Counted from the stretch's first letter, positions 34,081 through 52,812 are shown. The stretch is DNA of 64,000 nucleotides from Candidatus Omnitrophota bacterium (GCA_903944345.1 CAJARJ010000018.1:45933-109932); one strand, 5' to 3'. The notes: a model not told the origin generated them from the sequence alone. Translations and numbers: made by a program.

Positions 34081-34189
34081 CAGAAAGGACTCATGACACG
34101 TCGCAACTTTATAAAGACTTTACTGTTAATCAGCATTGGCTGGGTTCTTCGGCTGCGGCGACCTGCTGAAGACTTTTCGGCAGACTTGC

Positions 34190-36331
34190 TCAAGGAAGCG
34201 CTTTTTTACCGCAACACCAACGATCTTGCCGGATAAAGGCCGTCATAAGCCCCAATTGCAGTAACGCACAAAACACCAGCGTGTCCGAACTCCCCCACAA
34301 AGGAACAAGCACAACCCCTCCCAAAACAAGCCCCAAAACCGATCCAAGAACATCTGCGGCATACAATTTTCCCGGCACAGCTCTCGAAGAAACCGCGACA
34401 GCAAATTGCCCCCCGCTGACAGCCCCTGCGCAAAACGAAAGAAGAAAAAGCCCGGACAGCGAAAACCAGCCAGCTCCGCAAACCGCCAGAAACGGCAAAA
34501 CAGCCGCTCCCGTAAACGACACCGCTGAAGCCAAGGCCAACATCTTCCACGACACCAGACTTTTTCGGTTCTCCGCCAGCCAGGCACCGGCACAAACACC
34601 TGCCAGAAAAACAGCCGTTATCAACCCGAACCAGGAATAGACATACCCGAACAATGCCTGAAAGAGAATCAACACCGACGACTTGATAATCATCAGTTGA
34701 AAACCCCCGGCTGTTGCCGTTACCAAGGGAAGTCTGAACCCGGACTTCAATCCGGGAAAAAATACAAAAAGAACCAGACACCACAACAGCAGCAAACCGT
34801 GCTCGGCCATCTGCATAAAGCGGGCAAACAAAGAATTAAAATGTGTCGACCAGAAAGACAACGAAGAGGCAAAAAGTACAGGACGAAGATCCTGATTAAT
34901 TTCTCCGGGGACAGCAAGCATTCGCTCCAATCCCCCCAGACGCAGACGGTCAAAACGCTCATCCCAGTATCCAGGCTTGACCCAGGATGTTTCAAGACCA
35001 CGCTCCCGCAGCCTTCTTTCAAGTACCCGAGGATCCAGGCTAACAGTTCCAGGCGAGCGCACCCCCAGAAACAAGGTTCTAGCCCCCGGAAGGAATCTGA
35101 CTTCTGGAAAAACCGCCTTCAAAGTGGCAAACAAAGACCGCAGAACTCGACGGCATTCCTCATTGATATAGTTTTCGGCTGAAGTCATGGTCAAGGCCAA
35201 AACTCCCCCCTCAGCCAGAGCCAGAGCGGCCTCTTCAAAGAATTCCCTGGTGTAGAAACGATTCTGCAAAAGCGTTAAAGGATCACCGGCATCCACAATA
35301 ATCACATCATACAATCCCCGGACTCGCTTCAGGTAAGCCCGGCCGTCCGTACGGAAGACCCGGAGACGAGGATTTTGTAAAACTTGCCTAACCAAAGGCA
35401 TTTCACGGGCCAGCAAAGCCACAGTTTGAATATCCATCTCGGTACAGTCAACAGCCATACCTGGATGCTTTAACGCTTCCCGTTCTCTTCCCGCCGCCAG
35501 CGTCCCGCCAAGAATAAGCAGCCGTTTTGGATCGGGATGAGCAAGCAAAGCATAATGCACGATCTCTTCCGCAGAGGCCGCATCTCCTGCCGAAGCAGAA
35601 AACCGGCCATCTTCAAAGAAACTCAAACTGCCATTACGCTCCAAAAGAAGGCTGCGACCATAAACCGTGTCTTTTTCTGCAACGATTCTAAAGCCTTTCC
35701 AGGAAGCTGCTCGAATAATAAAAGCTGTTTTTTCTCCAAGGCCAGCCAGAAAAAAGAACAACATCGCACCGCCAAGCGCAATTTTAAAAACCAGGACTCC
35801 CTCGCCTTTAAAATAAATAATCAAAGCAGGAAGACAGACCAATACCACAATATCCCAGCTGCGCATAAAGGGAAAGAAAAGAAACGTCGCCCCCACTCCG
35901 GCAAGAAAAAAACCCAGCGCTTCCTGCGCATACAAAGACATGACGCGCCCTTTAGCCTCTCTGGTCAAGGCTGAGAAAATTGCACCAAAAACAATGCTGG
36001 CGGGCAATACCAAAAAGAACGCAACCAAAACACTGATCAGTGGATCCGGGATCTGTCCAGGCACAAGCCCAAGACCCAAACGCACTGCAGAGGCCGCCAG
36101 CGCTATCAGCGGCGCCAGAACAGACACCAGCCCAAAAAGCAATGAAGCGGAACTTTTTAACCAGATACTGCCGCAAGCTATCCCCGCCATCCAGCCAGCA
36201 AGGCACAGCATATACACCAACTCATTGCCGCCGAAAGCGGCCATAAGTTCCCGCAAAACAAACAGCTGCAACAGGCATGAACAAAACCCCAGACAGAAAG
36301 CTTGTATCAACATCGCAGGGATCCTCATCAA
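34190..36331 (-). CDS. Spermidine-synthase-like (PABS domain) protein fused between N- and C-terminal polytopic membrane domains
   Basis: 713 aa. Central domain has an aminopropyltransferase-like fold (RLLILGGTLAAG..., VIIVDAGDPLTLLQNRFYTREFF). The Gly-rich dcSAM motif is degenerate (no GGGDG Asp). Confidence 0.55.
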   Translation of the reverse strand: MMRIPAMLIQAFCLGFCSCLLQLFVLRELMAAFGGNELVYMLCLAGWMAGIACGSIWLKSSASLLFGLVSVLAPLIALAASAVRLGLGLVPGQIPDPLISVLVAFFLVLPASIVFGAIFSALTREAKGRVMSLYAQEALGFFLAGVGATFLFFPFMRSWDIVVLVCLPALIIYFKGEGVLVFKIALGGAMLFFFLAGLGEKTAFIIRAASWKGFRIVAEKDTVYGRSLLLERNGSLSFFEDGRFSASAGDAASAEEIVHYALLAHPDPKRLLILGGTLAAGREREALKHPGMAVDCTEMDIQTVALLAREMPLVRQVLQNPRLRVFRTDGRAYLKRVRGLYDVIIVDAGDPLTLLQNRFYTREFFEEAALALAEGGVLALTMTSAENYINEECRRVLRSLFATLKAVFPEVRFLPGARTLFLGVRSPGTVSLDPRVLERRLRERGLETSWVKPGYWDERFDRLRLGGLERMLAVPGEINQDLRPVLFASSLSFWSTHFNSLFARFMQMAEHGLLLLWCLVLFVFFPGLKSGFRLPLVTATAGGFQLMIIKSSVLILFQALFGYVYSWFGLITAVFLAGVCAGAWLAENRKSLVSWKMLALASAVSFTGAAVLPFLAVCGAGWFSLSGLFLLSFCAGAVSGGQFAVAVSSRAVPGKLYAADVLGSVLGLVLGGVVLVPLWGSSDTLVFCALLQLGLMTAFIRQDRWCCGKKALP

Positions 36332-36349
36332 TAGCGGTCAAACACATCC

Positions 36350-36389
36350 GTAAAAACAAAGAGCGCAGGCTATAAATCTGCCTGCGCTC
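36350..36389 (-). terminator. Rho-independent terminator downstream of the TM-helix protein gene
   Basis: GAGCGCAGGC-tataaatct-GCCTGCGCTC is a perfect 10-bp stem, followed on the minus strand by TTTGTTTTT. Confidence 0.55.
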
Positions 36390-36411
36390 TTTAAACAAAT
36401 CATTCTAAGGT

Positions 36412-37092
36412 TTACTTGCCAATATTCTGCTTATTATAAAAATCCCAAAGAATCTTGGCGGCCAGATCTTTACCACCCAAACCAAAAGCAAGCCCCAGCG
36501 CAAGACAAAAAGCCGCAAAAAAGATCTGAAACGTCGTGCTGACAAAAAATGTAGAAATTCTCAACTGCTCAAATGTCATGACCGTTGTAAACAACAGAAT
36601 CGCTATCTTGGCAATCGAACCCAGCAACTCGGCACGCGAAACGTCAATATTTGAAGCTGCAGCCTTGATAATACTGTAAATAAGATTGGCAAAAAACATA
36701 CCGATCAAAGCCACAAAAACCGCGGCAATAACATTCGGAATAAACCCGGTGACTCTTTCCAGAAGGTGCGCCGCGACAACCAGCCCCATCGAATCAACCA
36801 CGACAGTAAACACCAGCAGCATCATCGCCCAATACACGAGGCCAGCCAGCAAAGAAGACGCCGAGAGCATCACTCCGCCCTTGGTGAGCATTGCAGAAAA
36901 CCCGATCTTGTCGGAAAAAGAATTAAACTTGACCTGATCAAGTAGTTTCTGTGCAAAACCGCTGAAAACTTTGGCAATAATCCAACCGAAAAGAAGGATC
37001 AGAAGCGCGCCAAATAGCTGGGGAACAAAAGCCCCAAGTTTGTTGAGCATCGTTACAATCGGCTCGATAAAAAGAATATCAATCCCCGCCAT
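36412..37092 (-). CDS. Small polytopic membrane protein (conserved TM-helix repeat, MscS-N-terminal-like)
   Basis: 226 aa made of about 5 hydrophobic helices with internal repeats. No catalytic motif. Confidence 0.4.
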   Translation of the reverse strand: MAGIDILFIEPIVTMLNKLGAFVPQLFGALLILLFGWIIAKVFSGFAQKLLDQVKFNSFSDKIGFSAMLTKGGVMLSASSLLAGLVYWAMMLLVFTVVVDSMGLVVAAHLLERVTGFIPNVIAAVFVALIGMFFANLIYSIIKAAASNIDVSRAELLGSIAKIAILLFTTVMTFEQLRISTFFVSTTFQIFFAAFCLALGLAFGLGGKDLAAKILWDFYNKQNIGK

Positions 37093-37249
37093 ATTTTCTC
37101 CTTTATTTAGAATTTTTCAACGCAAGTTGATTACACTCTACATGAATTTGTAAGTTATGAAAATAATTTTTCATCTTTTTTAACTCGTTATCCTATAGAC
37201 AGATCGAGTCAAAATTATACCCGCAGAAGGCCCCGGCAGGCCGGAGCCA

Positions 37250-39079
37250 TCAATAGGGTGTCTTGAGTCGCCACCATTCGGAGAAGTCCGGAAGTAGCGG
37301 TCGAAAAATGGAGTTAACCAGCCGCGAATTTTTCCGTGCAATCAACTGGTTACCAGCAAGCAGTGCCGCCCTGACCCGGGAGGAGTTGACAATATCCGGC
37401 GTAACACCCTGACCATAAAACATATCCGGGGTACCTGCACCTTGCGCACGAGCCAGAATGAAACCGGAAGAAAGATTCTGCAAAAAATCCCGCAACATTT
37501 CCCTGGCAACGGCCTCGCCGCCTCTGATCTGCATAGAACTTGTTTGTCCGGTCAACATGTTGGTGTCGGTCCGGGTTATGATATCAACACCCGTGTAAAG
37601 TTTTCGAAACAATGCCAGCGCCCGGGGATTATCATCCTCAAGCGCGGAAAAGAATGGCCGAATATCCCCAAAACCGGCAGCAAACAAGGTGTTATAGAGA
37701 ATATCCCATGTCCGAGTATCTTTGCCTGGCTCCTCCTGCCGGGGGATCTGCTCAAGCCCGGGAACATCCATAACCAGAAAGCCTTCGGCCGAAAGCCGCG
37801 CCCGCGCCATGGCATAAAACTCACGCGAATAAAGGCGGCTAAGGTTGTAATCGCTTGGAGCCGGAAAATCCAGATAAATGGCATCAAAGAACTCGCGTGA
37901 CTGGCGTACATAATAAAAAGCATCGTCAATAACCACCTGCACCCGGGGATCCTCAAAAGCCCCTTGGGTCAAAGAGCCCGGCCCGGAAGCGGAACGGAAC
38001 AAGTCAACCACCTTCCTGTCGATCTCAACTAAAATGATCTTGCGGACGGAAGAATACTTGAGCAATTCCCGAATCAGAAGGCCGTCACCGCCCCCCAGAA
38101 CAAGAACAGACTCCGGAACACGAACCGAGATTGCCATAGGAACATGCGCAAAGAATTCATGGTAAAATTTCTCAACATCAGAAAGAAACTGAAAATCATG
38201 CCCAAGATACAAAGCTAACCCGTGCGGACGAACCTTCCTGCCAGCTTTGCCGTTACTATAAATATCCAGCAAGTCATCCGGATAACCGGCGGCCGAGCGA
38301 ATACTCACCAAATCAATAGACTGATACGGACTGCGAACCCGCTGCACTTGCGCCAGAAAGGCACTCTCATCAGGAAGGGCATAAAAGCGGCGCAAGAAAT
38401 ACTGTTCAAATCTTCCGGCGCCGGCAAGCGTCAAAAAAATCAGAATCGCTGCCAGAGCAGACCAAAGTAGCTGCCCCGCCCCCCTGACCGGTTTGACCCA
38501 CCACAAAACAACGGCAGCCATAAGATTAACGACAGCAATTAATCCGGCAATCTGCAATAACCCGAACCTAGGCAACAAAAACAGCGGGAAAATCAATCCT
38601 GCGGACAGCGAGCCCAGATAATCCATGCCCAGAACCCGAACCAGAAGATTTCTGCCAGGAACCGCCTCCACAGCCATATCCAGAAGAAGAGGCAATTCGA
38701 TCCCCGCCAAAAAACCGACGGCAGACGAAAGCACAAGCGCGCTGAAAAAAAACAGGACGTCCGCAGCAATAACCTGATCCCCGGACAAAAAGGACAAAGC
38801 GCCCGACTGGGCTGCATGCAGAAGAAGAACAGATCCTCCTCCCACCAGGCTCAAAACAATTTCCACCCGAAATAGCCTGAGTTCCAGCGGAGCGTTTTTG
38901 AAAAATCTTCCGCCTGACCAGGCCCCTGCCCCCATGCTCCCGACAAAAACCCCCACCGCCAGACTCACCCAAACCAGCTGGTTAGCCGTAAAAACCGCAA
39001 CCGTCTGGGCAAGCACCAGCTCATAAACAAGCGCACACGCCGCCAGGACAAACGACAAAAGATATATAACAAACATCAT
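37250..39079 (-). CDS. Membrane-fused spermidine-synthase-like aminopropyltransferase (N-terminal about 7-TM domain + PABS domain + C-terminal soluble domain)
   Basis: VLVLGGGDGLLIRELLKY (dcSAM-binding GGGDG), VEID, and IYLDFPAPSDYNLSRLYSREFY (the DSSDP-equivalent). Translationally coupled to speH (ATGA overlap). Confidence 0.65.
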   Translation of the reverse strand: MMFVIYLLSFVLAACALVYELVLAQTVAVFTANQLVWVSLAVGVFVGSMGAGAWSGGRFFKNAPLELRLFRVEIVLSLVGGGSVLLLHAAQSGALSFLSGDQVIAADVLFFFSALVLSSAVGFLAGIELPLLLDMAVEAVPGRNLLVRVLGMDYLGSLSAGLIFPLFLLPRFGLLQIAGLIAVVNLMAAVVLWWVKPVRGAGQLLWSALAAILIFLTLAGAGRFEQYFLRRFYALPDESAFLAQVQRVRSPYQSIDLVSIRSAAGYPDDLLDIYSNGKAGRKVRPHGLALYLGHDFQFLSDVEKFYHEFFAHVPMAISVRVPESVLVLGGGDGLLIRELLKYSSVRKIILVEIDRKVVDLFRSASGPGSLTQGAFEDPRVQVVIDDAFYYVRQSREFFDAIYLDFPAPSDYNLSRLYSREFYAMARARLSAEGFLVMDVPGLEQIPRQEEPGKDTRTWDILYNTLFAAGFGDIRPFFSALEDDNPRALALFRKLYTGVDIITRTDTNMLTGQTSSMQIRGGEAVAREMLRDFLQNLSSGFILARAQGAGTPDMFYGQGVTPDIVNSSRVRAALLAGNQLIARKNSRLVNSIFRPLLPDFSEWWRLKTPY

Positions 39080-39435
39080 TCGTCAAAGCCCCTGGACATC
39101 ACACTAACCTCTGCTTTACGGGCCAAAAGCCCCTGCTTAAGAAAATCAATCGCCCTCTCGGGAAACATGGTTCCGCAGGTCAAAACATCAAAAGCCGCAT
39201 AACCGTCCTGGGGCCATGTATGAATAGAGAAATGTGATTCAGCAATAAAAATCATCGCACTGACACCCTGCGGCTCAAACTGATGGAAATGGGATCCAAG
39301 AATAGTGGCGCCGCTGTCACGGGCGGCCTGCAGAAAAAGAGGACGCAAAACTTCAACCCTGGCCAGGGGCTCCGGATCACAACCGGTAAACTCGACAAGA
39401 TAGTGTCTGCCAAATTCATGTTTTCTGGATTTCAT
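39076..39435 (-). CDS. speH: S-adenosylmethionine decarboxylase proenzyme, class 1b (SpeH)
   Basis: 119 aa with the FIAESHFSIHTWPQDGYAAFDVLTCG self-processing site (ES/H). Confidence 0.8.
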   Translation of the reverse strand: MKSRKHEFGRHYLVEFTGCDPEPLARVEVLRPLFLQAARDSGATILGSHFHQFEPQGVSAMIFIAESHFSIHTWPQDGYAAFDVLTCGTMFPERAIDFLKQGLLARKAEVSVMSRGFDE

Positions 39436-40244
39436 AACGCCTCTTCATGAAGATATAAACGAACACAGACCTCCTGGATTCGCCCGGACCAAGCCAGCCC
39501 GGCCAACGTCAGAAGCAGCAGCAGTGCCGCGCCACGCAAATACACTCTCGCCTTAACCCCGAACTCAGGTCGCCAAACCAGAACCAGAAAAAGCGCCCCC
39601 GCCGCATTGCACGTTGCGACCGCCATCAGAGAAGGCACAAGTCCGGATAAAGGATAAAGACAGAAAACATATAACAAAGTTCCGGCAAAAGCCCCGAGAT
39701 AATCAAAAGCGATCAGCCGGTTACGATCGGACTTTAAATCACTTGCGCCCAATGCAAGAAGCAGCGGCAACTCAAACCCGGTCAGAAAACCAATCAAAAC
39801 AACAAGCATGTGCGCCCAAAACAAAAGAAATCCGGATGGAAAATTCAACGCATCCAGAAGAAAAAGACCCGGAACAGCCGAAACACCAAACAAAATCAGC
39901 AATGTTTCAACCTTAAACAGAAGCCGCCAGGGTCTTTTGACAACATAACGTTCAGCCGCAAAAGCCCCTACACCCATAAAACACATATAGAGACCGATTG
40001 TCACGCTGTAACGCAGAACGGTATTGGCAAAAAACGCGGAAAGAACCTGGGCCAGCAACAACTCGTAAGCCATACTGCATAACGCCAGAACAAACTTGAG
40101 AAAAAGCAATGGCCGGAGCCGTCCTGCGGTTAAACCTGCAGAATCGACTCCGGCCTTATATGGCGTCTGCCGGAAAATCAAGCTTTCTCCTGAATCACCC
40201 GCATCAGCTGCCGGGCCGCTTCTTCCGGACCCTTTCTCTCCCAA
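39432..40244 (-). CDS. Polytopic membrane protein paralogous to the N-terminal TM domain of the SpeE-like fusions
   Basis: YELLLAQVLSAFFANTVLRYSVTIGLYMCFMGVGAF parallels the 609-aa protein's YELVLAQTVAVFTANQLVWVSLAVGVFVGSMGAGAW. 4-nt overlap with speH. Confidence 0.5.
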   Translation of the reverse strand: MGEKGSGRSGPAADAGDSGESLIFRQTPYKAGVDSAGLTAGRLRPLLFLKFVLALCSMAYELLLAQVLSAFFANTVLRYSVTIGLYMCFMGVGAFAAERYVVKRPWRLLFKVETLLILFGVSAVPGLFLLDALNFPSGFLLFWAHMLVVLIGFLTGFELPLLLALGASDLKSDRNRLIAFDYLGAFAGTLLYVFCLYPLSGLVPSLMAVATCNAAGALFLVLVWRPEFGVKARVYLRGAALLLLLTLAGLAWSGRIQEVCVRLYLHEEAL

Positions 40245-41926
40245 CCGGCCAGTCCCAGACGAGTACGCATCTGACCGACATAAACTCCCTGCCTGAAGAA
40301 GTGCTCAAAATAATCTTTCGCCAAAGGATCGTGCAAATGCTTGTACTGGGCAGGACCAAAAACATTGGAGAAATAAGAATGCACCAGCCCCGTCGCCGTA
40401 GTTGTGCCCTTGCTCATGGCGGTGCCTTCACGAAAAACGTTAAGCGCAGCCTCCGGTGTCTTGAAGCGCTCGACAATCGGATGATCGTCATCAGTGGCAT
40501 CATAATTATTTGCATAAAAAACAAAATCAATCTTCTCACCCTTGATAACCTGCTGATACGAGGTAACCGGAATAATGATCCTGGCATTCACCTGATTGGC
40601 CGACATGATAATCGCACGGTCAATCTGGCCGAGCGCATATCCAGGCTGCAAATCGTCGAGGCGCAGAAACGCCCCGATCTCGGTGCCGTAACCCAGCACC
40701 CGCCCGTCGGGGGCAAGCTGGATCGAACCCATGTCATCCGCAACAATAATCAGATCCTGGATATGATCCTCACCCAGTCCGCGCAAAGCCTCAAGCGTTT
40801 CAGACTTTCCGGCACCGGTATCTCCGATAAAAAGCAACGTACGGTCGATATCCCCTTTCAGAATAATCCGTACCAGCGCGCCATGAAAGGGCATAATCCC
40901 GCGCTTCATCATGATAACGTTATGCAGGGTCAGGACCATCTTTTTGACATATCCGAAATAACCGAACTCGGGACGAAACGGAACCGCACCAACAAGGAGA
41001 TTATTCTTTTCGTCATCAAAGAAAACCTGTTCACAGTTAAAGCGTGCCAGGCTCTCGGGAGGAACTCCGTAGGCATACACACCATCCGGTTGACGCTCCA
41101 GATCCTCGTCTCCGGCAATCTCGAAAAGATTGCATAAAGAATGACCCAGCTCGGCAAAACGGTTATGAAAATAAACCATAATCAGCAGCTCTCCGACTTT
41201 GGCCGGATAACAAAGCCAGTCGTTAGAGTCGAAGCTCAGCCCCTTGATCGGGCTCTCATTAACCCTCTCGGCACGACCAGTCCGCTTGTTCATCGGTGGC
41301 GTCAGAATGAGCGGAGGGTACAAGAGCATCTGCCGGATCATGGGCACATTGTTCAATTCGGCATACTCCTGCGGCAGCTTAACCTCCCTGGGTACCGATA
41401 TGGTGGACACCTCGGCTCCCGCCGCAACCTGACGATAAATACGAGGGTGCTGTCCGGTTACATTCTCCTGGATGTCCCGATACATCTGACGAATAAGATT
41501 AGTCAACTGACCAATCGTCTCGTTAAATGTGCGATACGGGCGCTTGTCCCAGTTCTTGTCCTGCCCGCCGGAAATGATAAAACGGTCAAAACTGCGCCAA
41601 AAATTGTAAATACTTTCGATCAACTCATTAAACAATGTGGGATCCTGCAGAAAGACATCCGATCCTTTCACAATATTAGGAACCAGACTGGCCGGCATCT
41701 TGGTCAGATACTTGATAGTCTGGATAAGCCGGTCGATATCTCCTGTGTCGGCATCTTTCTTGCCGAAGACCTGCATCAGAATAGAACGACGTTTGGCCAG
41801 TTTGCCAACGGCAGCAGTTACAATTCCCTTGAAAAGCTCGCTATCGATAATCTCTTCTTCGGTCTCACAAATCCTGTTCTGGATACGCAGAATAATTTTC
41901 GTATCGTATATGTCATAAGACTGCAT
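40178..41926 (-). CDS. Uncharacterised 582-aa protein with an HPr kinase/phosphorylase-like P-loop domain
   Basis: HGALVRIILKGDIDRTLLFIGDTGAGKSETLEALRGLGEDHIQDLIIVADD (aa about 348-398) closely mirrors the HprK/P Walker-A region (GDSGVGKSETALELI..GH.LVADD). The N-terminal about 330 aa are unassigned. Confidence 0.6.
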   Translation of the reverse strand: MQSYDIYDTKIILRIQNRICETEEEIIDSELFKGIVTAAVGKLAKRRSILMQVFGKKDADTGDIDRLIQTIKYLTKMPASLVPNIVKGSDVFLQDPTLFNELIESIYNFWRSFDRFIISGGQDKNWDKRPYRTFNETIGQLTNLIRQMYRDIQENVTGQHPRIYRQVAAGAEVSTISVPREVKLPQEYAELNNVPMIRQMLLYPPLILTPPMNKRTGRAERVNESPIKGLSFDSNDWLCYPAKVGELLIMVYFHNRFAELGHSLCNLFEIAGDEDLERQPDGVYAYGVPPESLARFNCEQVFFDDEKNNLLVGAVPFRPEFGYFGYVKKMVLTLHNVIMMKRGIMPFHGALVRIILKGDIDRTLLFIGDTGAGKSETLEALRGLGEDHIQDLIIVADDMGSIQLAPDGRVLGYGTEIGAFLRLDDLQPGYALGQIDRAIIMSANQVNARIIIPVTSYQQVIKGEKIDFVFYANNYDATDDDHPIVERFKTPEAALNVFREGTAMSKGTTTATGLVHSYFSNVFGPAQYKHLHDPLAKDYFEHFFRQGVYVGQMRTRLGLAGWERKGPEEAARQLMRVIQEKA

Positions 41927-41950
41927 TTAACACCTTCCTCCTGTTGTTTT

Positions 41951-42607: not shown

Positions 42608-42734
42608 AACTCCCCCTCTGCTTCGTCTCTCGTCTTATCTTAGCAATTATACGGTACGCCGCAAGAATAATCTGGAATCCACCCGGGGAAACTCAGCGGA
42701 ACCACAGACATCGACGAGAAAGCAACCCGACAGG

Positions 42735-44510
42735 CTAACGGACGGCCCCGGGATTATTTAATGTATTACGGACTTCCCGCTCAAACTCAAAAGGCGAAAG
42801 CCGGCGGGCCTCACGATAGAAATCCAGGGATTTATCTCTTTGCCCCATAACAGCATAAATCTGTCCCAGACTGAAATAATTAATGTAATTAAGCGGTGAA
42901 CGGCGAACCGCCTCCTCAAACGAAGCGGCACTTCCCGCAAGAAAATCTGCCCGGCCATTTTCCTTCCAGGAATTCGCAAGTACAATACCCGCTGCAGCCG
43001 GATAAACACAGGACCAGGGGTTCAGGCGGGAAGCCTGAACAAAAAGATGTCCGGCCCTGGCCAAATCACCTCCTGCTCGCGCGACCTTGCCTTCCATATA
43101 CAAAAAGAAAGAAACCGACAAACAAACACTCAGGAACAATAAAACCCCCGCCAAAACTCCGGCAAAAACAAAGAACAAGCGCTGCCAACCTTTTGTCCAC
43201 AATCTTCCGGATGAGGGACGACTCATAGCTGCCAGAGCCGCCAGCATGGCCCAGCCATGCCAGGCAATATTGGGTTTAATAAAAGTGAAGCTAAAAAAAT
43301 TATCAATCAGAAATGCCGTCAACCCCCAAATCAGCCCGACAACAAGCCAGGCATCCGCGCCATCCCTGTAAAGCGCTAATGCCCGACGAGATGCAGCAAT
43401 AAACGCAGCTACCAAAGCCAATATGCCGACAAGGCCCAAAACCCCTGTTTCCACCAGCCATTGCAAATAGGTATTATGCACGAAAGCTGTTAGCGCCTCC
43501 TGCGAAGTCACCAGATGGCGCGAAGCCATGCCAAACGCGCCAAAGCCGCATCCTCGCAATGGATGCTCGGCAATCAGAGTCGCGGCATTCTGATAATATA
43601 AAAGGCGCGGTTGCAAGGCCGCGCCAAAATCCTTACGCGCCACAACCCAGGCAAAAGCCACCAGAAAAAGAAGTACGAAAAGAATCAACCCCGTAGTCTG
43701 GATGGAGGACAGGCTTCCTCTCATTCTCCGGTAAACAAGCGAAACCAGCAAACAGGCGGACAACAGAAAACTGCTCCAGGCCAGAAAAGAAAAAGTGGCC
43801 AGAAAGCCAGTCAGCAAAACAGCCGCGAAGCTTCCCCAGAAAATACGACGCCACCAACCTTTCGCTGCCACCGCATAAATACCACCCAGGGGAAGAAACA
43901 GCAAAAGATAACCCGCCAACGAATTAGGCCAACCCAGCAAAGAAGTGGCCCGGCGGCGAGTCAACACATAATGCAAACTGGAATTAAAATCCTGGAGCAG
44001 TGCGTCAGACGGCAGCGGCTGACGCAGAAAGAGCAAAACAAACTCCCGCACGGCAAAAGCCGCCGTCACCAAAGCACAAAGGAGCATGCCGATAACAAAA
44101 ATCCTGATACGACACGGGCTGTCCAGCAGGTCGGAAAGCATAAAGAAAAAAAACAACACCGACCCGAAAACCACCGCAGAAATAACACTCACCGAACGAT
44201 CGACGCTATAAAAAACGGATAAGACCACCGCAAAAAACAACAAAGATAATGGAAAAAAGAATCCGGAACGAACCCATACTTCCCTGCTAAAGAATTTATA
44301 AAACAGATAGCCAATAAAAAGCAGACAAGATAACCCGGCGACAATCAAATTCGAAAGTTCTTCCCGAACAAAGATTTCCGCATGCGGGAAGAACTTCCAG
44401 ATTGTCAAACGCAGAATAACCAGACTCAGGGCCGCATACAAAAAGACATCTTTCCAACCAAACAACCTTGCGGTAATGGCGGAAAGCGTTCTCTCATACT
44501 CACACTTCAT
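42735..44510 (-). CDS. O-antigen ligase (Wzy_C/WaaL) family membrane protein with a C-terminal TPR domain
   Basis: About 10 TM helices. HNTYLQWLVETGVLGL Wzy_C motif. C-terminal about 150 aa are TPR-like. Confidence 0.7.
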   Translation of the reverse strand: MKCEYERTLSAITARLFGWKDVFLYAALSLVILRLTIWKFFPHAEIFVREELSNLIVAGLSCLLFIGYLFYKFFSREVWVRSGFFFPLSLLFFAVVLSVFYSVDRSVSVISAVVFGSVLFFFFMLSDLLDSPCRIRIFVIGMLLCALVTAAFAVREFVLLFLRQPLPSDALLQDFNSSLHYVLTRRRATSLLGWPNSLAGYLLLFLPLGGIYAVAAKGWWRRIFWGSFAAVLLTGFLATFSFLAWSSFLLSACLLVSLVYRRMRGSLSSIQTTGLILFVLLFLVAFAWVVARKDFGAALQPRLLYYQNAATLIAEHPLRGCGFGAFGMASRHLVTSQEALTAFVHNTYLQWLVETGVLGLVGILALVAAFIAASRRALALYRDGADAWLVVGLIWGLTAFLIDNFFSFTFIKPNIAWHGWAMLAALAAMSRPSSGRLWTKGWQRLFFVFAGVLAGVLLFLSVCLSVSFFLYMEGKVARAGGDLARAGHLFVQASRLNPWSCVYPAAAGIVLANSWKENGRADFLAGSAASFEEAVRRSPLNYINYFSLGQIYAVMGQRDKSLDFYREARRLSPFEFEREVRNTLNNPGAVR

Positions 44511-44802
44511 AGTCAGCCAAGCGCCGCTCCGAACGAACCGCCGTAATAAAGCCCTTGATGGCTACATGCTCAGGATGATCCTGATACTCATCTAACGCTT
44601 CACGAGAGGCAAACTCGGTATACAAAACCACATCCGCTGAACTGTCAGTCGCGCTAAAGTCCAGGCCGACTTCCAGCTTAAGCATACCGTCGATACGTCC
44701 ATTAAGCGCCTCAAGCTTTTCTTTCATCAACAAAGCGTTCGCAGCTTTATCATTGCCTAACGCGCTGTCCTTCAGTTTCCAGAATACGACATGCTTGATC
44801 AT
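44500..44802 (-). CDS. Dabb-family stress-responsive alpha/beta-barrel protein
   Basis: MIKHVVFWKLKD...EHVAIKGF is a Dabb-like about 100-aa protein. Start refined to 44802. Confidence 0.55.
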   Translation of the reverse strand: MIKHVVFWKLKDSALGNDKAANALLMKEKLEALNGRIDGMLKLEVGLDFSATDSSADVVLYTEFASREALDEYQDHPEHVAIKGFITAVRSERRLADYEV

Positions 44803-44904
44803 AAAACTATCTCCTTCTGCGGTTAACCCGTTCCTGGAACGGATACGATTCATGCGGCCATCTTACTGACCAGACCTATGATTCTAACCTCGAATCGCGG
44901 AAAA

Positions 44905-45666
44905 TCAAGTTTCACTCTGCAAGAAACTGCGAGGATCAAAAAAAGCTGACAAAACATGCTTCTTGCCGCCCAGACCGGGGATCTTGCGAATCACAAAACC
45001 GCGGTCGGTCAGACCTCGCCGGACAAAACCCGCAACAGTAAACGTTGTCAGGGTTGTCCCCTTCCGACTTAAAGCGGCTACTCCGTCAAAAACATGATCC
45101 GACCACATTTCAGGATTTTTGGAAGGAGCAAAACCGTCCAGAAGAACCACGTCCACCCCCTCCGGTGCCAATCCTGCGGTCTTAACCAGCGACAATGCCT
45201 CTTGCACATGCCGGAAAACAACTGTCAGAGTCACCCGATCCTCATCAAAAAGAAAAGACTTTATTTGTCCGGGCGAGGGAGTATATTGCGCTGCCAGCGC
45301 TGCGGCCTGCGGAGCCAGCACCGGCCAAAAAGCCAGTGCCCGTGTCAGATGCTCAACGGCCAAAGGATAAAGTTCCACTGAAATAAAATGTAACCGCCAG
45401 GAACGGGGAGCTGTCTCCCGCCACAACTGCCAGACACTACAAAAATCCAGCCCGGTCCCGAAACCTGTTTCCAGAATCGTAAAAGTTCCTCCCTCCGCGG
45501 AGCTCAAAGCCAGAAAACGTTCGCGCAAAGCATTGGACTGACAACACACATAAACAGATTCGTCATAACCACTTGAACGACAGAAATACTTGTCGCCAAA
45601 AGCGGTAGACTGGGGCATCCCCTGCTCGTCCCAGACAATATCAGCAAGCGAATCGGCAAGGCTCAT
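44905..45666 (-). CDS. tRNA mnm5s2U34 biosynthesis methyltransferase domain protein (MnmC C-terminal-domain-like / MnmD)
   Basis: ILETGFGTGLDF motif and DUF752-like SAM-MTase architecture. No FAD oxidase domain. Confidence 0.6.
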   Translation of the reverse strand: MSLADSLADIVWDEQGMPQSTAFGDKYFCRSSGYDESVYVCCQSNALRERFLALSSAEGGTFTILETGFGTGLDFCSVWQLWRETAPRSWRLHFISVELYPLAVEHLTRALAFWPVLAPQAAALAAQYTPSPGQIKSFLFDEDRVTLTVVFRHVQEALSLVKTAGLAPEGVDVVLLDGFAPSKNPEMWSDHVFDGVAALSRKGTTLTTFTVAGFVRRGLTDRGFVIRKIPGLGGKKHVLSAFFDPRSFLQSET

Positions 45667-46565
45667 GGCTCTCCGTCATTTGCAACTGTCAGCGTCAGCT
45701 CCATTGCAACCGAGCCCATACTGCCACGGGTCGAATGGACTGCACCCAAAGTCACTTTGCCCATATCCAGACCCAAAGACAAAAGAGCCTCGTGAACTAC
45801 TTTAGCGCGCTCCGTTGCCAGAGACGACATGGCAGCATGATCAGCAGGGGCGCTTTCAATCAATTGGCGCCTGATTTCCGTAATAAAAGCATTCTCCTGG
45901 TACTGGCCAGGACGATTCTTGTACTTCCTGGCCAATGACCAAAGACCACGAATCCCGAAACTGCGCTGATACAACATCTGGTAAAGCTGACTTTCCGTAC
46001 GCGAAGAACCCGCCCTGAGTTGCGCATAATTTCCTGCCAACGCTTGCGCTGCCAATGCCTTCCAGTCCATATCAGGATCGAAAGCCCCTTTAATCTCAAG
46101 CTTTAAAGCAGGACGCTGTTCCATGCCCCGCACCAGAGTTGCAAGTTTTTGCCGCTCGGCATCCGTCAATACCGCCTGCCCGGGCTGAAAACGCACGTAA
46201 CCAAGCTCGTCAGTTCCACTCTCCGAACCAAGAACAGAACCCAAAAAAGCAAAAGGACTGCTCACGACCTTGAAAAAGAAATTACGGATCACCTGTCCAA
46301 CCAACGGCCAGAAACGAAATTGCGGATCACTCAAATCCCCCGTAACCGGGAGAGCCACCTTAATTTGCCCATTAGCATCCTCCAAAAGTGCCAATGCCAA
46401 ACCAAAAGGTAACCCCAGCATCTTTGCTTTGAGTCCGGCGGCCAAAGGTAAAATTCTGAACCAGCAGGCGATGATCAGCCGAAAGCTGATTGCCGGCAAT
46501 ACGATAATCCATCCGTAAATCAAACTTGCCATCATCCAGTTCCCGCCCGGTATATTTACCGACAT
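45663..46565 (-). CDS. DUF748 (AsmA-like) protein, C-terminal fragment (frameshifted gene?)
   Basis: LPFGLALALLEDANGQIKVALPVTGDLSDPQF is the conserved DUF748 core. Overlaps the upstream fragment by 194 nt in another frame. Confidence 0.5.
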   Translation of the reverse strand: MSVNIPGGNWMMASLIYGWIIVLPAISFRLIIACWFRILPLAAGLKAKMLGLPFGLALALLEDANGQIKVALPVTGDLSDPQFRFWPLVGQVIRNFFFKVVSSPFAFLGSVLGSESGTDELGYVRFQPGQAVLTDAERQKLATLVRGMEQRPALKLEIKGAFDPDMDWKALAAQALAGNYAQLRAGSSRTESQLYQMLYQRSFGIRGLWSLARKYKNRPGQYQENAFITEIRRQLIESAPADHAAMSSLATERAKVVHEALLSLGLDMGKVTLGAVHSTRGSMGSVAMELTLTVANDGEP

Positions 46566-47355
46566 ACGGCGAAAGCACCGTCAGCACGTAACTGCCCAGA
46601 ACACAGCTCATCTCCAGTTCCGGGGGCGATTGCAAAGGTTTAAGCCGGGCCTCCAGATTCACAGTGCCCCGCCCATCCAGAGTCCCTTCCACAAATACCC
46701 CGGTCCACACACCCGGATCTGTTGAGAAACCGGTCACCCGAATCAGAAGTCCACCCAGATTTGTAACAAGCCGGGGAGAAACTGTTTCATCTGTAAACCC
46801 CAAACGAGCTTCGCGGACAATCAAACTATCTACAAATACGGGGGGAAAGGATGCCTTCCGGGAAGAGGAATCTGCCGGAGTATCCACCGCGGCGGAAGCC
46901 TTCGGCGCCGGAAAGGATGCCACAAAATCCAAAAGATTAAAACGACCCTCCGCAGACAAGCGGGCATCAACCTCAAGACCGTCGAGCACAACAGACTCGA
47001 CACGTAAATTCTTTTTTAACAATGCCAGAAAACTGACATCCAGGCTGGCCGCACGTAAAAAGAACAATGGCTCCCCTTGGGTATCCCTGAGCTCAACACC
47101 ACGGACACCTATGCTGAACATATAAGGGTTCACCCAAACGGCGGACACAGCAAGCTTGCGTTTTAACAACTTGCTTCCCTGGGCTTCAACTGCCCAGCGG
47201 AGCATAAACGGCAGAACAATAAAACCGAGGATCGTATAAACACAAACAACTATCCCGAAAAACTTCAGTACCTGAACAAGGCTCCGGATCCCTGACGGAC
47301 GTGCAATTTTCTGCATAGAAATCTTCCCGAAAAACTTTTCTTTTTGCGATGACAA
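46372..47355 (-). CDS. DUF748 (AsmA-like) protein, N-terminal fragment
   Basis: N-terminal TM anchor followed by AsmA-like beta-rich repeats. The reading frame terminates inside the conserved core and continues in the 45663..46565 ORF. Confidence 0.5.
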   Translation of the reverse strand: MSSQKEKFFGKISMQKIARPSGIRSLVQVLKFFGIVVCVYTILGFIVLPFMLRWAVEAQGSKLLKRKLAVSAVWVNPYMFSIGVRGVELRDTQGEPLFFLRAASLDVSFLALLKKNLRVESVVLDGLEVDARLSAEGRFNLLDFVASFPAPKASAAVDTPADSSSRKASFPPVFVDSLIVREARLGFTDETVSPRLVTNLGGLLIRVTGFSTDPGVWTGVFVEGTLDGRGTVNLEARLKPLQSPPELEMSCVLGSYVLTVLSPYVGKYTGRELDDGKFDLRMDYRIAGNQLSADHRLLVQNFTFGRRTQSKDAGVTFWFGIGTFGGC

Positions 47356-47382
47356 CGCCGATTAACACATCTTGATATCTCA

Positions 47383-47425
47383 AATCAGAAGAAAACCGTA
47401 GACTGTTCAAACAAACAGTCTACGG
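47383..47425 (-). terminator. Rho-independent terminator downstream of the repeat-protein gene
   Basis: CCGTAGACTGTT-caaaca-AACAGTCTACGG is a perfect 12-bp stem, followed on the minus strand by TTTTCTTCTGATTT. Confidence 0.6.
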
Positions 47426-47460
47426 CTTCCTCCTCAAGCCCAGACAAAATATCCGGTTCT

Positions 47461-48171
47461 TTAGAAAGACCAGTTAACTATGGGCAGAAACTCAAACGGC
47501 TTTTTGTTGCCGTTATAATTGGCCAGACCAATCTGAAGTCCGTCCAGTGACTTGGTCACATTAATAAATCCCAGCTGGAATCCGCGCATCTCACGGGCAT
47601 AATTGACAAACCCGCCCTGAAAACCTTTCACAGCGCCGTCCGCATAATTCAGAGCACCAATGGCGGCCCCGGAAAAATAGGACTTGGAGAAATTTCCCAA
47701 ACCACTCTGTAGCCCGACAAAATCACCGCCAGCGTAATTAACCCAAGCCGCCTGCCAGCCATGAAAAAAGCCCTCTGTCCAGCCAACCATCCCGGACTGT
47801 AATCCCGTAAAGTCTCCCTCGGTTACAGCGGCAAACCCTCCCTGCCAACCGACAAAGCGACTGCCCGTACGACTAACCCAGCCCGGCTGCCAACCATAGA
47901 ACGCTCCGTCAGTCCAGTTGCCAAGACCCAGCTCAACACCGATCACATCCCCTTTGGTGCGGTTGACACCGAAGAAACTATAGCTTAAACCGGTGACATC
48001 CTGGTTAACGGTATACAAAAGGTTAAGCCGAAGGCCTTTGATCGATTCGTCAGCCGGAACCAGCTGAACCGGATTAAAAAGCGACAACTGCAAAAACTTT
48101 GCCTCCTGGGCACCTGCCGGCATCGCCGCCGCGAATACAACAACCGTTAATAAAAGTAACTTTCTGAACAT
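47461..48171 (-). CDS. Secreted protein built from degenerate Gly/Trp/Gln-rich tandem repeats
   Basis: Signal peptide MFRKLLLLTVVVFAAAMPAGAQE. Body has about 8 repeats of about 11-13 aa (GWQPGWVSRTGSRFVGWQGGF... GLQSGMVGWTEGFFHGWQAAWVNYAGGDFVGLQSG... GFQGGFVNY... GFQLGFINV). Confidence 0.5.
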   Translation of the reverse strand: MFRKLLLLTVVVFAAAMPAGAQEAKFLQLSLFNPVQLVPADESIKGLRLNLLYTVNQDVTGLSYSFFGVNRTKGDVIGVELGLGNWTDGAFYGWQPGWVSRTGSRFVGWQGGFAAVTEGDFTGLQSGMVGWTEGFFHGWQAAWVNYAGGDFVGLQSGLGNFSKSYFSGAAIGALNYADGAVKGFQGGFVNYAREMRGFQLGFINVTKSLDGLQIGLANYNGNKKPFEFLPIVNWSF

Positions 48172-48299
48172 AAGGCCTCCTTGATTAAAATCATTCACAA
48201 ACTACTCCAGTTATTATATCCTTTATACCGCCGGGAACAAGGAAAGATTTGAAAGAGATCTTTTTTTGCCGGAGATAACCTGGACTACGCGAGGAGTGA

Positions 48300-48340
48300 C
48301 CAATAAAAAGAACCCCGAACGATCAGGTTCGGGGTTCTTT
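48300..48340 (-). terminator. Rho-independent terminator downstream of the TPR-like lipoprotein gene
   Basis: GAACCCCGAAC-gatcag-GTTCGGGGTTC is a perfect 11-bp stem, flanked by an A-run (plus) and a T-run (minus). Confidence 0.55.
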
Positions 48341-48386
48341 ATTAAAAAAACTTTATCCGCAACGGCCAGAAAAAGTCAGCTGGCAG

Positions 48387-49391
48387 TTATTGTCCGTACT
48401 GCAATTCCAGCAGTTTCTGCTGAGCGCCTTCTGCCGGTCTCCAGAACCAGCCCTGGGGATCCCAGCACTGTGAAAAACCATAATTATCAACAACCTGCTG
48501 ATAGGCTTTGGCTGCTTCTGTCTTCATACCGGCCAGGCTATAGGCTTCTCCCAGAACAAACGCTCCGGTTCCGACATCATTAAGAGCCCAATATTTGTGA
48601 ATGTTCTCGGCAGGAAGCTCGGGAAAATCCTTGAGGAAAGACTGCATCTCTTTGGCACGCTCACTGTAAAGAGAATCCATCTTTCTGAAGTAACCGATAA
48701 CTTCATCCAGATTCTCTTTCGCCAACGATGCCCACATCTTGCTAACCAATTCATAGGAAGTCATGTTGCCAAAATCCAGATCCAGATTCTTCTCGATCAT
48801 GTACAAACCATCACGCGCCGCTTCCGCAGGTTTCCAGAATGTTTTGCTGCCCGGATCATAGGTCTGACCATAAGAGAATTCGTTAATGACTCTTTGATAG
48901 GCGGCCTTGGCTTTGTCCATATCTTTCGCCTTGCGATAAGCCTCGCCCTGGATAAAAAGAGAAGTCGCAACATCATTAAGTGCCCAATACGAAAAAACCT
49001 TGGCCGGATCACCTGCAGGATAGTCGTTAAGGGTAGCTTGCATTTTGGCTGCCTCAGTCGCATAGAGGTCAACACATTTTCCGGTATAAGTTTTTACCCC
49101 TGTCAAATCCTTCTGCGCCAGCGACTGCCAGGCCTTGGATGTCAGTGTATTGGACTTATAATCGCCAAAAGTGTAGACACCGGGGACTGAAGCGGGCGCC
49201 GCAGACTGGCTTGTAACCGTCGTCTGAACTTTTTGGACAGGAGGCTGAACCTGCTCGACAGGCTTACTGGCAACCTGCTGATTCTTGGGAGCGCAAGAGG
49301 TACAAACCCAGTCCCAATGCCTGCAAGCACAACCCGCCGAGGTTAAAAGAAGAACACATACACCCAACAAATTCAAATAAGAATGTTTCAT
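48387..49391 (-). CDS. Lipoprotein with two tandem TPR-like repeat modules
   Basis: Lipobox LLTSAGC. Internal duplication (YWALNDVATSLFIQGEAYRKA...AKAAYQRVINEFSYGQTYDP vs YWALNDVGTGAFVLGEAYSLA...AAKAYQQVVDNYGFSQCWDP). Confidence 0.5.
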   Translation of the reverse strand: MKHSYLNLLGVCVLLLTSAGCACRHWDWVCTSCAPKNQQVASKPVEQVQPPVQKVQTTVTSQSAAPASVPGVYTFGDYKSNTLTSKAWQSLAQKDLTGVKTYTGKCVDLYATEAAKMQATLNDYPAGDPAKVFSYWALNDVATSLFIQGEAYRKAKDMDKAKAAYQRVINEFSYGQTYDPGSKTFWKPAEAARDGLYMIEKNLDLDFGNMTSYELVSKMWASLAKENLDEVIGYFRKMDSLYSERAKEMQSFLKDFPELPAENIHKYWALNDVGTGAFVLGEAYSLAGMKTEAAKAYQQVVDNYGFSQCWDPQGWFWRPAEGAQQKLLELQYGQ

Positions 49392-49652
49392 AAGCCACCA
49401 ACTCCTGATTATTGATTACAATGTAGCTGTTATGTTTACCCGCATCAGCTCCTGCGATATAAGCCTGTTTCTACACAAACGACCCTGTAAAGTTAGCATA
49501 TAACGTCATCGAATGTCAACATTAAGAATCTTACGGTCAGATTTGACCATAACAGACAGCAAGCCGCTCATTAAAATGGCACCGCTTGCCACTAGACAGA
49601 ACAATACATCACACAACAAGCGTGAGCGCGAATCCAGACCTCCCGGGTCACG

Positions 49653-51188
49653 TCAGACCGCTCCGGCATTCCCTGTTACAATATATTCGACCGGATTGTA
49701 ACTGTCCGTGAAAACTGGACTCCCTTCCAGACTATAATCTTGCGGCGGCACCCGGGTAGCAAGCAATGCCTGAAGGCCGCCGGGGGGTTCTATGCGGAGA
49801 AAATCATCATAAGTTCCCATGCGCATACCAGCCACAATAATAATATTCTGCAAATCCCCGGGATTCTGTCGATTGGTGGCGTAAACATCAACTCGCCCGA
49901 AAACCTCAGACAGAGTTCGGGTTATGGCGCGAAAGAATCGCGCTCTGTCTCCTTCAATGGCACTAATAATATTCATCATGTAAATACCATCCGGAGTCAA
50001 TCTCTGGCGTACCAGATCAAAAAACTCTTTTGTGACCAGATGAAACGGAACATTGTGCTTGCCATGGAAAACATCTCCAAAAACAAGATCATACTGGCCG
50101 TTATCTGAACGCAAATAGCGCCGCGCATCTTCTGCAGCAATCTTCATATGCGGATAGTCCCCGGTACGAAAAAAAATCTTGCCTGCTTCGATCACCTGCG
50201 GATCAATCTCGCAGACCTCCACTTGGGCACCGGGATAAGCCCGGCTCAACGCCTGCGGCATGGTAAAAGCGCCTCCACCAAGAAAAAGTGCCCTTTGCAT
50301 CCGCGGACAATAAAGCCGACTCAATTCCCAGTACCGGTTATACACCAGCGGACTTTCGGGCGAATGCTCGAAGCGCGCCCCCGCTGTAGAATTATCCGTA
50401 TTAATTGTCGTCACAAAATCTCCATTAGCCAGTTCCGGCCCCCGGAACACAACTATGCGGTGAAAGAATGTGATCTTGTGAAAGAGAATATGCCACGGCA
50501 TTGGCGGATTTTTCCTGGCAACCCATCCTGCCAGGAGCAAGGCAAGAAATATAACCGCCACAGGCACCGCCAGGTTCAGTGGTTTTCTAAGAGCGACTCC
50601 ATAAACCGCTGCTGCCATGCACGCCAGGACAATCCCGCTTCCCAAAAAGATCGTCCACAAATCAAAACGTGGAATAAGCAGAAAGCCGGTGGCAAAAGTC
50701 CCGGCGACACTCCCCAGCATGGAAAGCGTACCCACTATCCCGGATGATATTCCAACATGCCGATCCGCGGACAATAAACTGACCAGGCGCACACAAAAAG
50801 GAGGCACCGCACCGAGAAGAAAGCCAGGCAAAGCAAAAAACATACCTGCCGCCACAGCAGGACCCCAAACAGCACTGGTTCCAGACAAAAAAAGATCAGC
50901 AGAAAGATGCAAAAAAGGAACTATCAGAACAAAAACAGCCGCCAACCCAAGAATATGCCCCAGCAAAACAGGGGTGGGCTTGCGGTCAACCAGCCATCCA
51001 CCGTAACAATAACCTGCACTCATCGCAGTCAGAATGACTCCGATCAGTCCGGTCCAGGTATAGAGACTATTGCCAAAAACAGGAGCCAGAATGCGGTTAC
51101 CCGTCAACTCAATGACCATAACAATCGCCCCAGAGAAAAAGGCAATCACAGACAATAAAAGAGCTTCCGTCCAGGCTGAACTTTTCAT
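49653..51188 (-). CDS. Membrane-fused spermidine-synthase-like protein (third paralog; N-terminal about 7-TM + PABS-like domain)
   Basis: ALFLGGGAFTMP...VEVCEID...YDLVFGDVF...HLVTKEFF is a diverged aminopropyltransferase-like domain following a polytopic TM domain. Confidence 0.55.
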   Translation of the reverse strand: MKSSAWTEALLLSVIAFFSGAIVMVIELTGNRILAPVFGNSLYTWTGLIGVILTAMSAGYCYGGWLVDRKPTPVLLGHILGLAAVFVLIVPFLHLSADLFLSGTSAVWGPAVAAGMFFALPGFLLGAVPPFCVRLVSLLSADRHVGISSGIVGTLSMLGSVAGTFATGFLLIPRFDLWTIFLGSGIVLACMAAAVYGVALRKPLNLAVPVAVIFLALLLAGWVARKNPPMPWHILFHKITFFHRIVVFRGPELANGDFVTTINTDNSTAGARFEHSPESPLVYNRYWELSRLYCPRMQRALFLGGGAFTMPQALSRAYPGAQVEVCEIDPQVIEAGKIFFRTGDYPHMKIAAEDARRYLRSDNGQYDLVFGDVFHGKHNVPFHLVTKEFFDLVRQRLTPDGIYMMNIISAIEGDRARFFRAITRTLSEVFGRVDVYATNRQNPGDLQNIIIVAGMRMGTYDDFLRIEPPGGLQALLATRVPPQDYSLEGSPVFTDSYNPVEYIVTGNAGAV

Positions 51189-52806: not shown

Positions 52807-52812
52807 AAAACC

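Follow-up and report, generated by a model that had tools for sequence, protein, structure and literature searches.

Major facilitator superfamily modules coupled to spermidine-synthase-fold domains in a Candidatus Omnitrophota locus

In a 64,000-nucleotide stretch of DNA from a Candidatus Omnitrophota bacterium (GCA_903944345.1 CAJARJ010000018.1:45933-109932; this whole 64-kb stretch is called the window below), three genes encode a polytopic membrane domain joined to a PABS domain of the spermidine synthase (SpeE) kind and a fourth encodes a membrane domain only. The question raised by this locus is whether these genes are the products of a local expansion, with one catalytic copy and partners whose active sites have progressively degenerated, as a sequence-only reading had proposed, or whether they are separate functional units. 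The four genes, here named A (34190..36331, 713 aa), B (37250..39079, 609 aa), D (39432..40244) and E (49653..51188, 511 aa), all lie on the minus strand, as open reading frames (ORFs) and translations confirm; the letter F is used for a further gene between B and A. Pfam identifies PF01564 in A (E-value 2e-19), B (E-value 4e-29) and E (E-value 7e-9), and no PABS match in D. The explanation that we favour, with a probability of about one half, is that A, B and E belong to three anciently separated families in which a SpeE/PABS fold is coupled to modules of the major facilitator superfamily (MFS), that they act as independent functional units, and that their enzyme domains face outward and are served by a cofactor-carrying MFS part.

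Membrane modules and active sites of A, B, D and E

One homologous membrane module, an MFS half, is present in all transmembrane (TM) parts of these proteins. In profile comparisons by hhalign, D matched the C-terminal module of A at 98.9% (E-value 1e-17), the N-terminal module of A at 96% and the N-terminal module of E at 86%, while the two modules of A matched one another at 97.5%, and the PABS-bearing genes are homologous in both domains. The AlphaFold2 model of A (predicted local distance difference test, pLDDT, 92.3; predicted template modelling score, pTM, 0.92) comprises seven helices, a SpeE fold (residues 215-480) and seven further helices (residues 500-706, pLDDT 92), the last of these being the extra C-terminal 7-TM domain that had been read from the sequence. 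The model of D (pLDDT 90.6) has seven helices, which form a six-helix MFS bundle plus TM7. On these models, A is a complete 14-TM MFS protein, with both of the six-helix bundles that characterize the superfamily and with the enzyme domain inserted between two additional helices, TM7 and TM8. D is a half-MFS with TM7, while in B and in E a half-MFS and TM7 are followed by an enzyme domain. Pfam returned no MFS match on the window proteins. The top structural matches of the membrane part of A are the organic-amine MFS transporters VMAT2, VAChT and FLVCR, while the fold matches of D include the lipid-handling MFS proteins LtaA, SPNS2 and MFSD2A. A differs from VMAT2 and from 14-helix MFS proteins of the DHA2 type in carrying a domain of 270 residues between its extra helices, and sequence identity is only approximately 9%.

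To orient the modules, lysine and arginine residues (K/R) were counted over family alignments of A and D. MFS proteins have their N-terminus inside the cell. The N-terminal module of A averages 9.0 K/R on the side of the N-terminus versus 3.7 on the other side, and most of the latter belong to the stretch with which the PABS domain begins: the N-terminus holds 1.4 and loops 2, 4 and 6 hold 3.1, 2.2 and 2.4, versus 0.02, 0.26 and 0.55 in loops 1, 3 and 5 (about 0.8 in total). The K/R distribution of the C-terminal module fits a TM8 that runs from outside to inside, D has 7.3 K/R on the N-terminal side versus 2.1 on the other, and the same alternation is found in E and in B, the latter read directly from its sequence. 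Exactly two extra helices flank the enzyme domain of A, and these would be needless for a cytoplasmic insert because the central loop of an MFS protein is already cytoplasmic. From the N-in topology of the superfamily, the K/R bias and the two flanking helices, we infer that all SpeE-fold domains described here are located on the periplasmic face of the membrane.

The divergence of the enzyme domains argues against an expansion in this lineage. While the PABS/SpeE fold is recognizable in A, B and E, their mutual identity over this domain is only 22-27% and each gene falls within a broad family of its own; for both reasons the three appear to be members of separate, old and widespread families with no local expansion. 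A-type proteins form a clade of approximately 700-800 aa present in at least 579 species genomes, with hosts that include Omnitrophota, Acidobacteriota, Planctomycetota, Aminicenantes and Desulfobacterota. All three proteins score below every equivalog cut-off tested (TIGR00417, PRK00811 and PRK03612), the best being B with 280 bits versus the 472 bits set for PRK03612. E matches the uncharacterised family NF037959, 'fused MFS/spermidine synthase', over its full length (profile positions 2-479 of 480; 247 bits versus a cut-off of 40), and has homologues of 40-50% identity in Omnitrophica, Planctomycetes, Verrucomicrobia and Myxococcota. The layout of NF037959, a membrane domain plus PF01564, is shared by these proteins, and many homologues carry precomputed MFS_1 matches. 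The match of A to NF037959 is marginal and partial (46.5 versus 40 bits), and A differs from it in that another MFS half follows the enzyme domain (TM-PABS-TM, 14 helices) and in having a clade of its own and a radical-SAM neighbour (SAM, S-adenosylmethionine); judged by its sequence, we file A as a distinct TM-PABS-TM relative of NF037959. Among named relatives, those closest to A, D and E come from Candidatus Omnitrophica metagenome-assembled genomes (MAGs), at 41-54% identity.

To compare the active sites, the enzyme domains were aligned onto the Thermus and Thermotoga aminopropyltransferases. As had been noted before, the glycine loop reads LGGGDGL in B, LGGTLAAG in A and LGGGAFTMP in E, such that the acidic residue of GGG(D/E)G that selects decarboxylated S-adenosylmethionine (dcAdoMet) is present in B only. 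B also keeps the Tyr (FYHE), the ribose-binding acid (VEID), the adenine Asp (DDA) and the catalytic Asp after strand 4, the last within a variant motif, DFPAPSDY, in which the second Asp of DxxDP is replaced; this pattern is common to five B-type proteins encoded beside D genes in other genomes. In A the Tyr is replaced by Ser and the loop Asp is missing, yet E298 and D300 at the ribose position and D329 at the adenine position are kept, as are both Asp of DxxD after strand 4 (VDAGDP). E likewise has a glycine loop without Asp yet retains E-I-D and D-A-R, with the first Asp after strand 4 kept and the second changed to His. These readings are family signatures. Among A-type proteins the loop consensus is GGG[VLAI]xG, D300 and D329 are invariant, and E298 and an LNRFYTREFF block are largely conserved, while the E family conserves FLGGGAFxMP, VvEiDP, DARr and GDaynG. 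It has been shown experimentally for the fungal 7-TM methyltransferase NHMT that the SAM-using enzymes of this fold are set apart from the aminopropyltransferases by a hydrophobic residue where GGGDG has its acid (PMC10349129). The features that mark NHMT and METTL13 in that work are found in A, with L/A at the acid position and E298 and D300 retained, and in E, with A at the acid position and E-I-D retained. Because each family conserves its own variant loop together with the residues that bind adenosine, 'degenerate' is a misnomer for A and E, which look like SAM binders under selection. Since the dcAdoMet-selecting acid is confined to B, A and E should not, on their sequences, be filed as aminopropyltransferases or counted among polyamine biosynthesis genes.

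The D-SpeH-B unit

Between D and B lies a gene that the sequence-only reading had overlooked, speH (39076..39435, minus strand), which shares 4 bases with each of its two neighbours. Its 119-aa product is a class 1b (Bacillus-type) S-adenosylmethionine decarboxylase (PF02675, E-value 1.7e-35; TIGR03330, 124 bits versus a cut-off of 75.65) that has no signal peptide and in which the processing motif ES/HTWP and the active site are intact (IAESHFSIHTWP...TCG). D itself shares 37% identity with the N-terminal part of B (BLASTP E-value 1e-24), in agreement with the earlier view of it as a membrane domain only, and matches positions 21-229 of the NCBIfam model PRK03612. It belongs to a family of stand-alone membrane proteins of approximately 226 aa that is found in many phyla and has polar residues within its TM helices, of which Y39, E40, E137 and Y161 are invariant and D160 is nearly so. 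The open frame of D extends to a TTG at 40244, beyond the start at 40181 that gene callers chose on identical metagenome contigs; the resulting 249-aa form is 100% identical to the protein P0241, and the same callers start A at 36313 (707 aa).

A D-type gene lies directly upstream of a B-type Spermine_synth gene (533-639 aa) in all five contexts examined, namely those of the window's organism, a Verrucomicrobiales MAG, a TARA contig, the contig ctg33932 and an Elusimicrobiota genome. The speH gene lies between the two in the first and second of these, is fused to D in the TARA contig, and is missing from the two remaining genomes. Fusions of SpeH to D, with the decarboxylase at the N-terminus of D, occur in three protein clusters, and such fusions of an AdoMet decarboxylase to a D-type half-MFS, followed by a B-type gene, are seen at L087 (5001..6050) and in the proteins P0337-P0339. 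As Rosetta-stone evidence, these fusions suggest that the membrane module has the decarboxylase at work on its cytoplasmic face. No A-type gene is found near the D-B cassettes in the four other contexts, and E is also absent there. The proposal that a catalytic subunit is accompanied by partner proteins thus holds for one pair: D behaves as a partner specific to the catalytic B, while A and E do not share in this arrangement.

B has a 7-TM half-MFS at residues 1-222, an aminopropyltransferase domain at approximately residues 263-440 and then a conserved C-terminal extension. It most resembles PRK03612, the membrane-bound SpeE with an N-terminal TM region found, for example, in mycobacteria: the TM region of this model aligns with both B and D, its PABS region aligns with B, and B keeps GGGDG and the catalytic Asp. 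Besides its score below the cut-off, B differs from PRK03612 in having DFPxPxDY in place of DxxDP, a C-terminal extension of 170 aa, and the partner gene D, which the model does not include. By its sequence, B is a probable aminopropyltransferase of a new, D-partnered subtype. As an MFS protein needs two halves, B and D would form a split MFS with SpeH docked on the cytoplasmic side. Together the three genes would make up a portable module for polyamine synthesis. The Pseudomonas pair PA4773/PA4774 was considered as an analogue of the D-SpeH-B unit and rejected, as PA4774 is a soluble thermospermine synthase of 349 aa.

The stop codon of a gene for a 582-aa protein (40178..41926, minus strand), which contains a P-loop (GDTGAGKS) and has a weak PEPCK/HprK-like match, overlaps the start of D by 4 bases. 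This gene is kept in three close relatives; as the genes upstream of D elsewhere are unrelated to it and to one another, it was rejected as a conserved fourth member of the cassette.

A, its radical-SAM neighbour and the remainder of the window

A survey of 10 kb around the A-type gene in 80 loci from other genomes placed A in a different setting. None of the 80 loci contains speH or a B-type or D-type gene, and A was rejected as part of a polyamine cassette on this basis. Instead, 57 of the 80 contain a strong homologue of the radical-SAM gene that in the window lies tail-to-tail with A across a gap of 110 bases (33109..34080, plus strand). Its 323-aa product is a bona fide member of TIGR04337 (383 bits versus a cut-off of 220), the radical-SAM component of the AmmeMemoRadiSam system (TIGR04335-04337: AMMECR1, Memo and radical SAM). 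This gene is on the same strand as A and directly upstream of or overlapping it in 15 loci, while in others the two genes point toward each other across a short gap, the arrangement found in the window. Memo or AMMECR1 is found in 28 of the 80 A loci, and in Acidobacteriota a convergent Memo::AMMECR1 fusion comes next after the A gene, with the radical-SAM gene beyond it. Nine loci from Omnitrophota and Planctomycetota have a CcdA/DsbD_2-type membrane protein between the radical-SAM gene and A. In the window, the start of the radical-SAM gene is overlapped by a gene for a membrane ferredoxin-type protein (31691..33112, plus strand; PF04205, FMN_bind, and PF12801, with NapH and NosR NCBIfam matches), whose FMN_bind domain is of a periplasmic type and whose 4Fe-4S domains are NapH/NosR-like; homologues of it occur in 16 of the 80 loci, and it is a candidate for the electron supply to an exported Fe-S enzyme.

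The association was also examined from the radical-SAM side in 80 metagenome loci, many of them on short contigs, in which an A-type gene was sought within 8 kb. One was found in 33 of the 80. Where both flanks extended for 5 kb or more, A was near 12 of 19 radical-SAM genes that bear a signal versus none of four canonical signal-less ones, although these numbers are small. In the favoured explanation, A would belong with the AmmeMemoRadiSam radical-SAM enzyme and not with the polyamine genes. Burroughs et al. are said to have described further Memo contexts in 2019, and these may already mention the neighbour A.

AmmeMemoRadiSam is usually treated as a cytoplasmic system. The radical-SAM enzymes linked to A differ in carrying export signals: of 54 complete ORFs, 38 have a start of the twin-arginine translocation (Tat) type, called from a twin-arginine motif plus a hydrophobic region, 10 have a Sec-like start and three are accompanied by a separate Tat peptide; the Memo::AMMECR1 fusion of locus L009 also has a signal-like start. 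The radical-SAM enzyme in the window is itself signal-less and starts exactly at the xCxLCP box. However, 13 bases past its gene lies an ORF of 47 codons (34093..34236, plus strand; overlapping the 3' end of A on the opposite strand) with a Tat-type signal, MTRRNFIKTLLL..., followed by LKEALFYRNTNDLAG. In full-length homologues, a Tat signal and an EAxFY... segment are fused ahead of xCxLCP, and from its sequence the 47-codon ORF appears to be the N-terminal piece, Tat signal plus EAxFY segment, that is missing from the window's enzyme. The gene order is permuted, with the enzyme first and its missing N-terminal piece second. The ORF is kept in the relatives L094, where it was called as a gene, and L095, and in three other lineages (L002, L003 and L006) a version of 53-57 aa comes after the radical-SAM gene, which there too is signal-less. 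A search of a library of 1.8 billion representatives with the 47-aa peptide gave a single match, a 47-aa relative, such that its family is untraceable by sequence. Export of the enzyme as a hitch-hiker on this peptide would be a reasonable reading of these arrangements.

In contrast to the genes described above, E stands 10 kb away in an unrelated context, and its homologues on three long contigs have no conserved gene context, including no candidate substrate gene. Its best match in the PDB is 3GJY, with a weak match to METTL13 (5WCJ, E-value 2e-5). E is an NF037959 protein that joins a 7-TM half-MFS to a SAM-type SpeE-fold domain; in the favoured explanation it would stand alone and probably act as a dimer. 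Divergent from E are a DltB/AlgI-like MBOAT gene (TIGR04091, 153 bits, below the cut-off) and a gene for a 314-aa partner (together 51370..53757, plus strand), and on its other side lie lipoprotein, DUF748/AsmA-like and O-antigen-ligase-like genes (42735..49391); this envelope-biogenesis neighbourhood is not conserved in other E contexts.

The gene F (36412..37092, minus strand) encodes 226 aa with the conserved TM helix repeats of MscS-type channels (PF05552, E-value 1.4e-19) and without the remainder of a mechanosensitive channel. It occurs in the close relatives L081, L094 and L095 and is absent from all other A or D-B contexts examined, and its position is thus lineage-specific. Further from the genes of interest, a multimeric [FeFe]-hydrogenase cluster of the Hnd/NuoEF type (27097..31661, minus strand) is built from subunits of the Fe-only hydrogenase (603 aa), NuoF-like (577 aa) and NuoE-like 2Fe-2S kinds, and in the relative L095 a HydF maturase gene is also near this cluster. 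A gene at 44905..45666 (minus strand) encodes an MnmC2-type tRNA (mnm5s2U34) methyltransferase domain (NF033855, 197 bits) that stands alone, the FAD-dependent MnmC1 half being absent.

Competing readings and what they mean

Under the favoured explanation, dcAdoMet would be made in the cytoplasm by SpeH, which stays inside whether free or fused to the N-terminus of D, and D would combine with the N-terminus of B into a split MFS. A positively charged adenosyl cofactor, dcAdoMet in the case of B:D and SAM in the cases of A and E, would move outward through the MFS parts to the domain joined to them; an alternative or additional cargo might be the amine. In this scheme B would transfer its aminopropyl group to an amine outside the cytoplasm. 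A, which probably binds SAM itself because its cofactor loop has no dcAdoMet-selecting Asp, would either supply SAM to the exported radical-SAM enzyme or methylate the substrate of that enzyme. A fuller version of this scheme, which we put forward as tentative and less likely than not, is an extracytoplasmic AmmeMemoRadiSam system in which a Tat-exported Fe-S enzyme, here on a 47-aa peptide that bears its missing first strand, would receive electrons from a NosR/NapH- or CcdA-like membrane protein and SAM from A with its periplasmic SAM-binding domain; likewise, the D-SpeH-B split MFS would hand dcAdoMet to a periplasmic aminopropyltransferase, and the proteins known as membrane-bound spermidine synthases would have envelope or periplasmic amines as substrates.

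Several points weigh against these proposals. To our knowledge, export of AdoMet or dcAdoMet by an MFS protein is not established in bacteria, and we know of no periplasmic radical-SAM enzyme. Memo and AMMECR1 were not found in the 64-kb window by tblastn, in which respect it departs from the AmmeMemoRadiSam set, and they may lie elsewhere in the genome. About a third of the signal-bearing radical-SAM loci with long flanks (7 of 19) have no A, and at L173, on a shorter contig, an apparently signal-less radical-SAM gene has A nearby. The first 25 residues past TM7 are fairly rich in K/R (2.9 in A). The position of the catalytic Asp varies within the A family (N37/D19/A12), and the GGTLAAG loop of this A deviates from the family consensus GGGVxG, a deviation kept in relatives of 80% and 67% identity, such that cofactor binding by this small clade is uncertain as judged from sequence. 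Lastly, we infer the B-D heterodimer from gene order and fold only.

The alternative that survives best, though we consider it rather unlikely, is that A and E are membrane N-methyltransferases of the NHMT/METTL13 kind that act on an exported protein, a lipid or an envelope polymer amine, with the target of A being the substrate or product of AmmeMemoRadiSam and with an MFS part that presents or flips the substrate in place of carrying SAM. NHMT (AN4663) combines 7 TM helices with an SpdS-like domain that has Ile for Asp, uses SAM, methylates the N-termini of secreted lytic polysaccharide monooxygenases (LPMOs) and requires its TM domain (PMC10349129). It thus sets a precedent both for such a layout and for a substrate on the exoplasmic side, and the SpdS-like domains of NHMT and METTL13 carry a hydrophobic residue at the acid of GxG(D/E)G, as the A/E type has a hydrophobic or small residue there with the ribose acid and adenine Asp intact. 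The weak METTL13 match of E and the presence of LtaA, SPNS2 and MFSD2A among the fold matches of D are also in keeping with this alternative. However, NHMT is a eukaryotic protein of the endoplasmic reticulum (ER), A has 14 helices, and the NHMT TM domain was compared with the bacterial half-MFS by layout. A route for SAM to the outer face would still be required, and the supply of SAM to the ER is raised as an open problem by the authors of the NHMT study (PMC10349129). Further, A-type proteins vary at the usual catalytic position that follows strand 4, A has no sequence match to any methyltransferase structure, and E has no candidate substrate gene conserved beside it.

The main rival to the favoured explanation, which we regard as unlikely, is synthesis-coupled export, in which the PABS domains are cytoplasmic and the MFS parts serve to move the polyamine product out or to bring the amine substrate in, such that the proteins would be synthases fused to exporters and anchored in the membrane. 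With SpeH and all SAM in the cytoplasm this would be the simplest supply, and the membrane part of A does resemble the amine transporters VMAT2, VAChT and FLVCR. The speD2-speE2 pair of Pseudomonas makes surface spermidine, but its proteins are soluble. Such an arrangement requires an N-out MFS half or a TM7 that does not span the membrane, against the strong N-in K/R bias in the A, D, E and B families, it gives no role to the two helices that flank the A domain, and it leaves the link of A to exported radical-SAM enzymes unexplained.

The reading with which the locus was first approached, that after a lineage-specific expansion B alone is catalytic and is joined in an assembly by A, E and D as inactive pseudo-enzymes or transporter-like proteins, is very improbable: although GGGDG is confined to B, D is truly a conserved partner of B, and A, F, B, speH and D are co-oriented within 6 kb in an order retained in two relatives, the low identity of the PABS domains, the absence of speH, B and D from the 80 A loci and of A and E from D-B cassettes elsewhere, the distant and unrelated context of E, and the conservation of loops and adenosine-binding residues within families, which points to ligand binding under selection and not to decay, all speak against it.

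Proteins of these families are labelled 'spermidine synthase' or 'fused MFS/spermidine synthase' in thousands of genomes, and none has an assigned function. The families themselves are already in databases, uncharacterised, and our literature search found no paper on the fused MFS/spermidine synthase families or on the function of AmmeMemoRadiSam. What the locus brings out is the modular design of MFS halves joined to a SpeE fold, the conserved split-MFS partner and the strong link of A to an apparently exported radical-SAM system, with a mechanism drawn from prediction and gene context. If the enzyme domains do face outward and receive their cofactor through the MFS parts, SAM- and dcAdoMet-dependent chemistry would take place in the bacterial periplasm, and this would open a new route to polyamine or methyl modification of the envelope. 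It would also suggest a way in which NHMT, the LPMO methyltransferase of fungi, is supplied with SAM in the ER, and would offer a first concrete point of entry to the Memo/AMMECR1/radical-SAM system, which has disease-linked homologues in humans.

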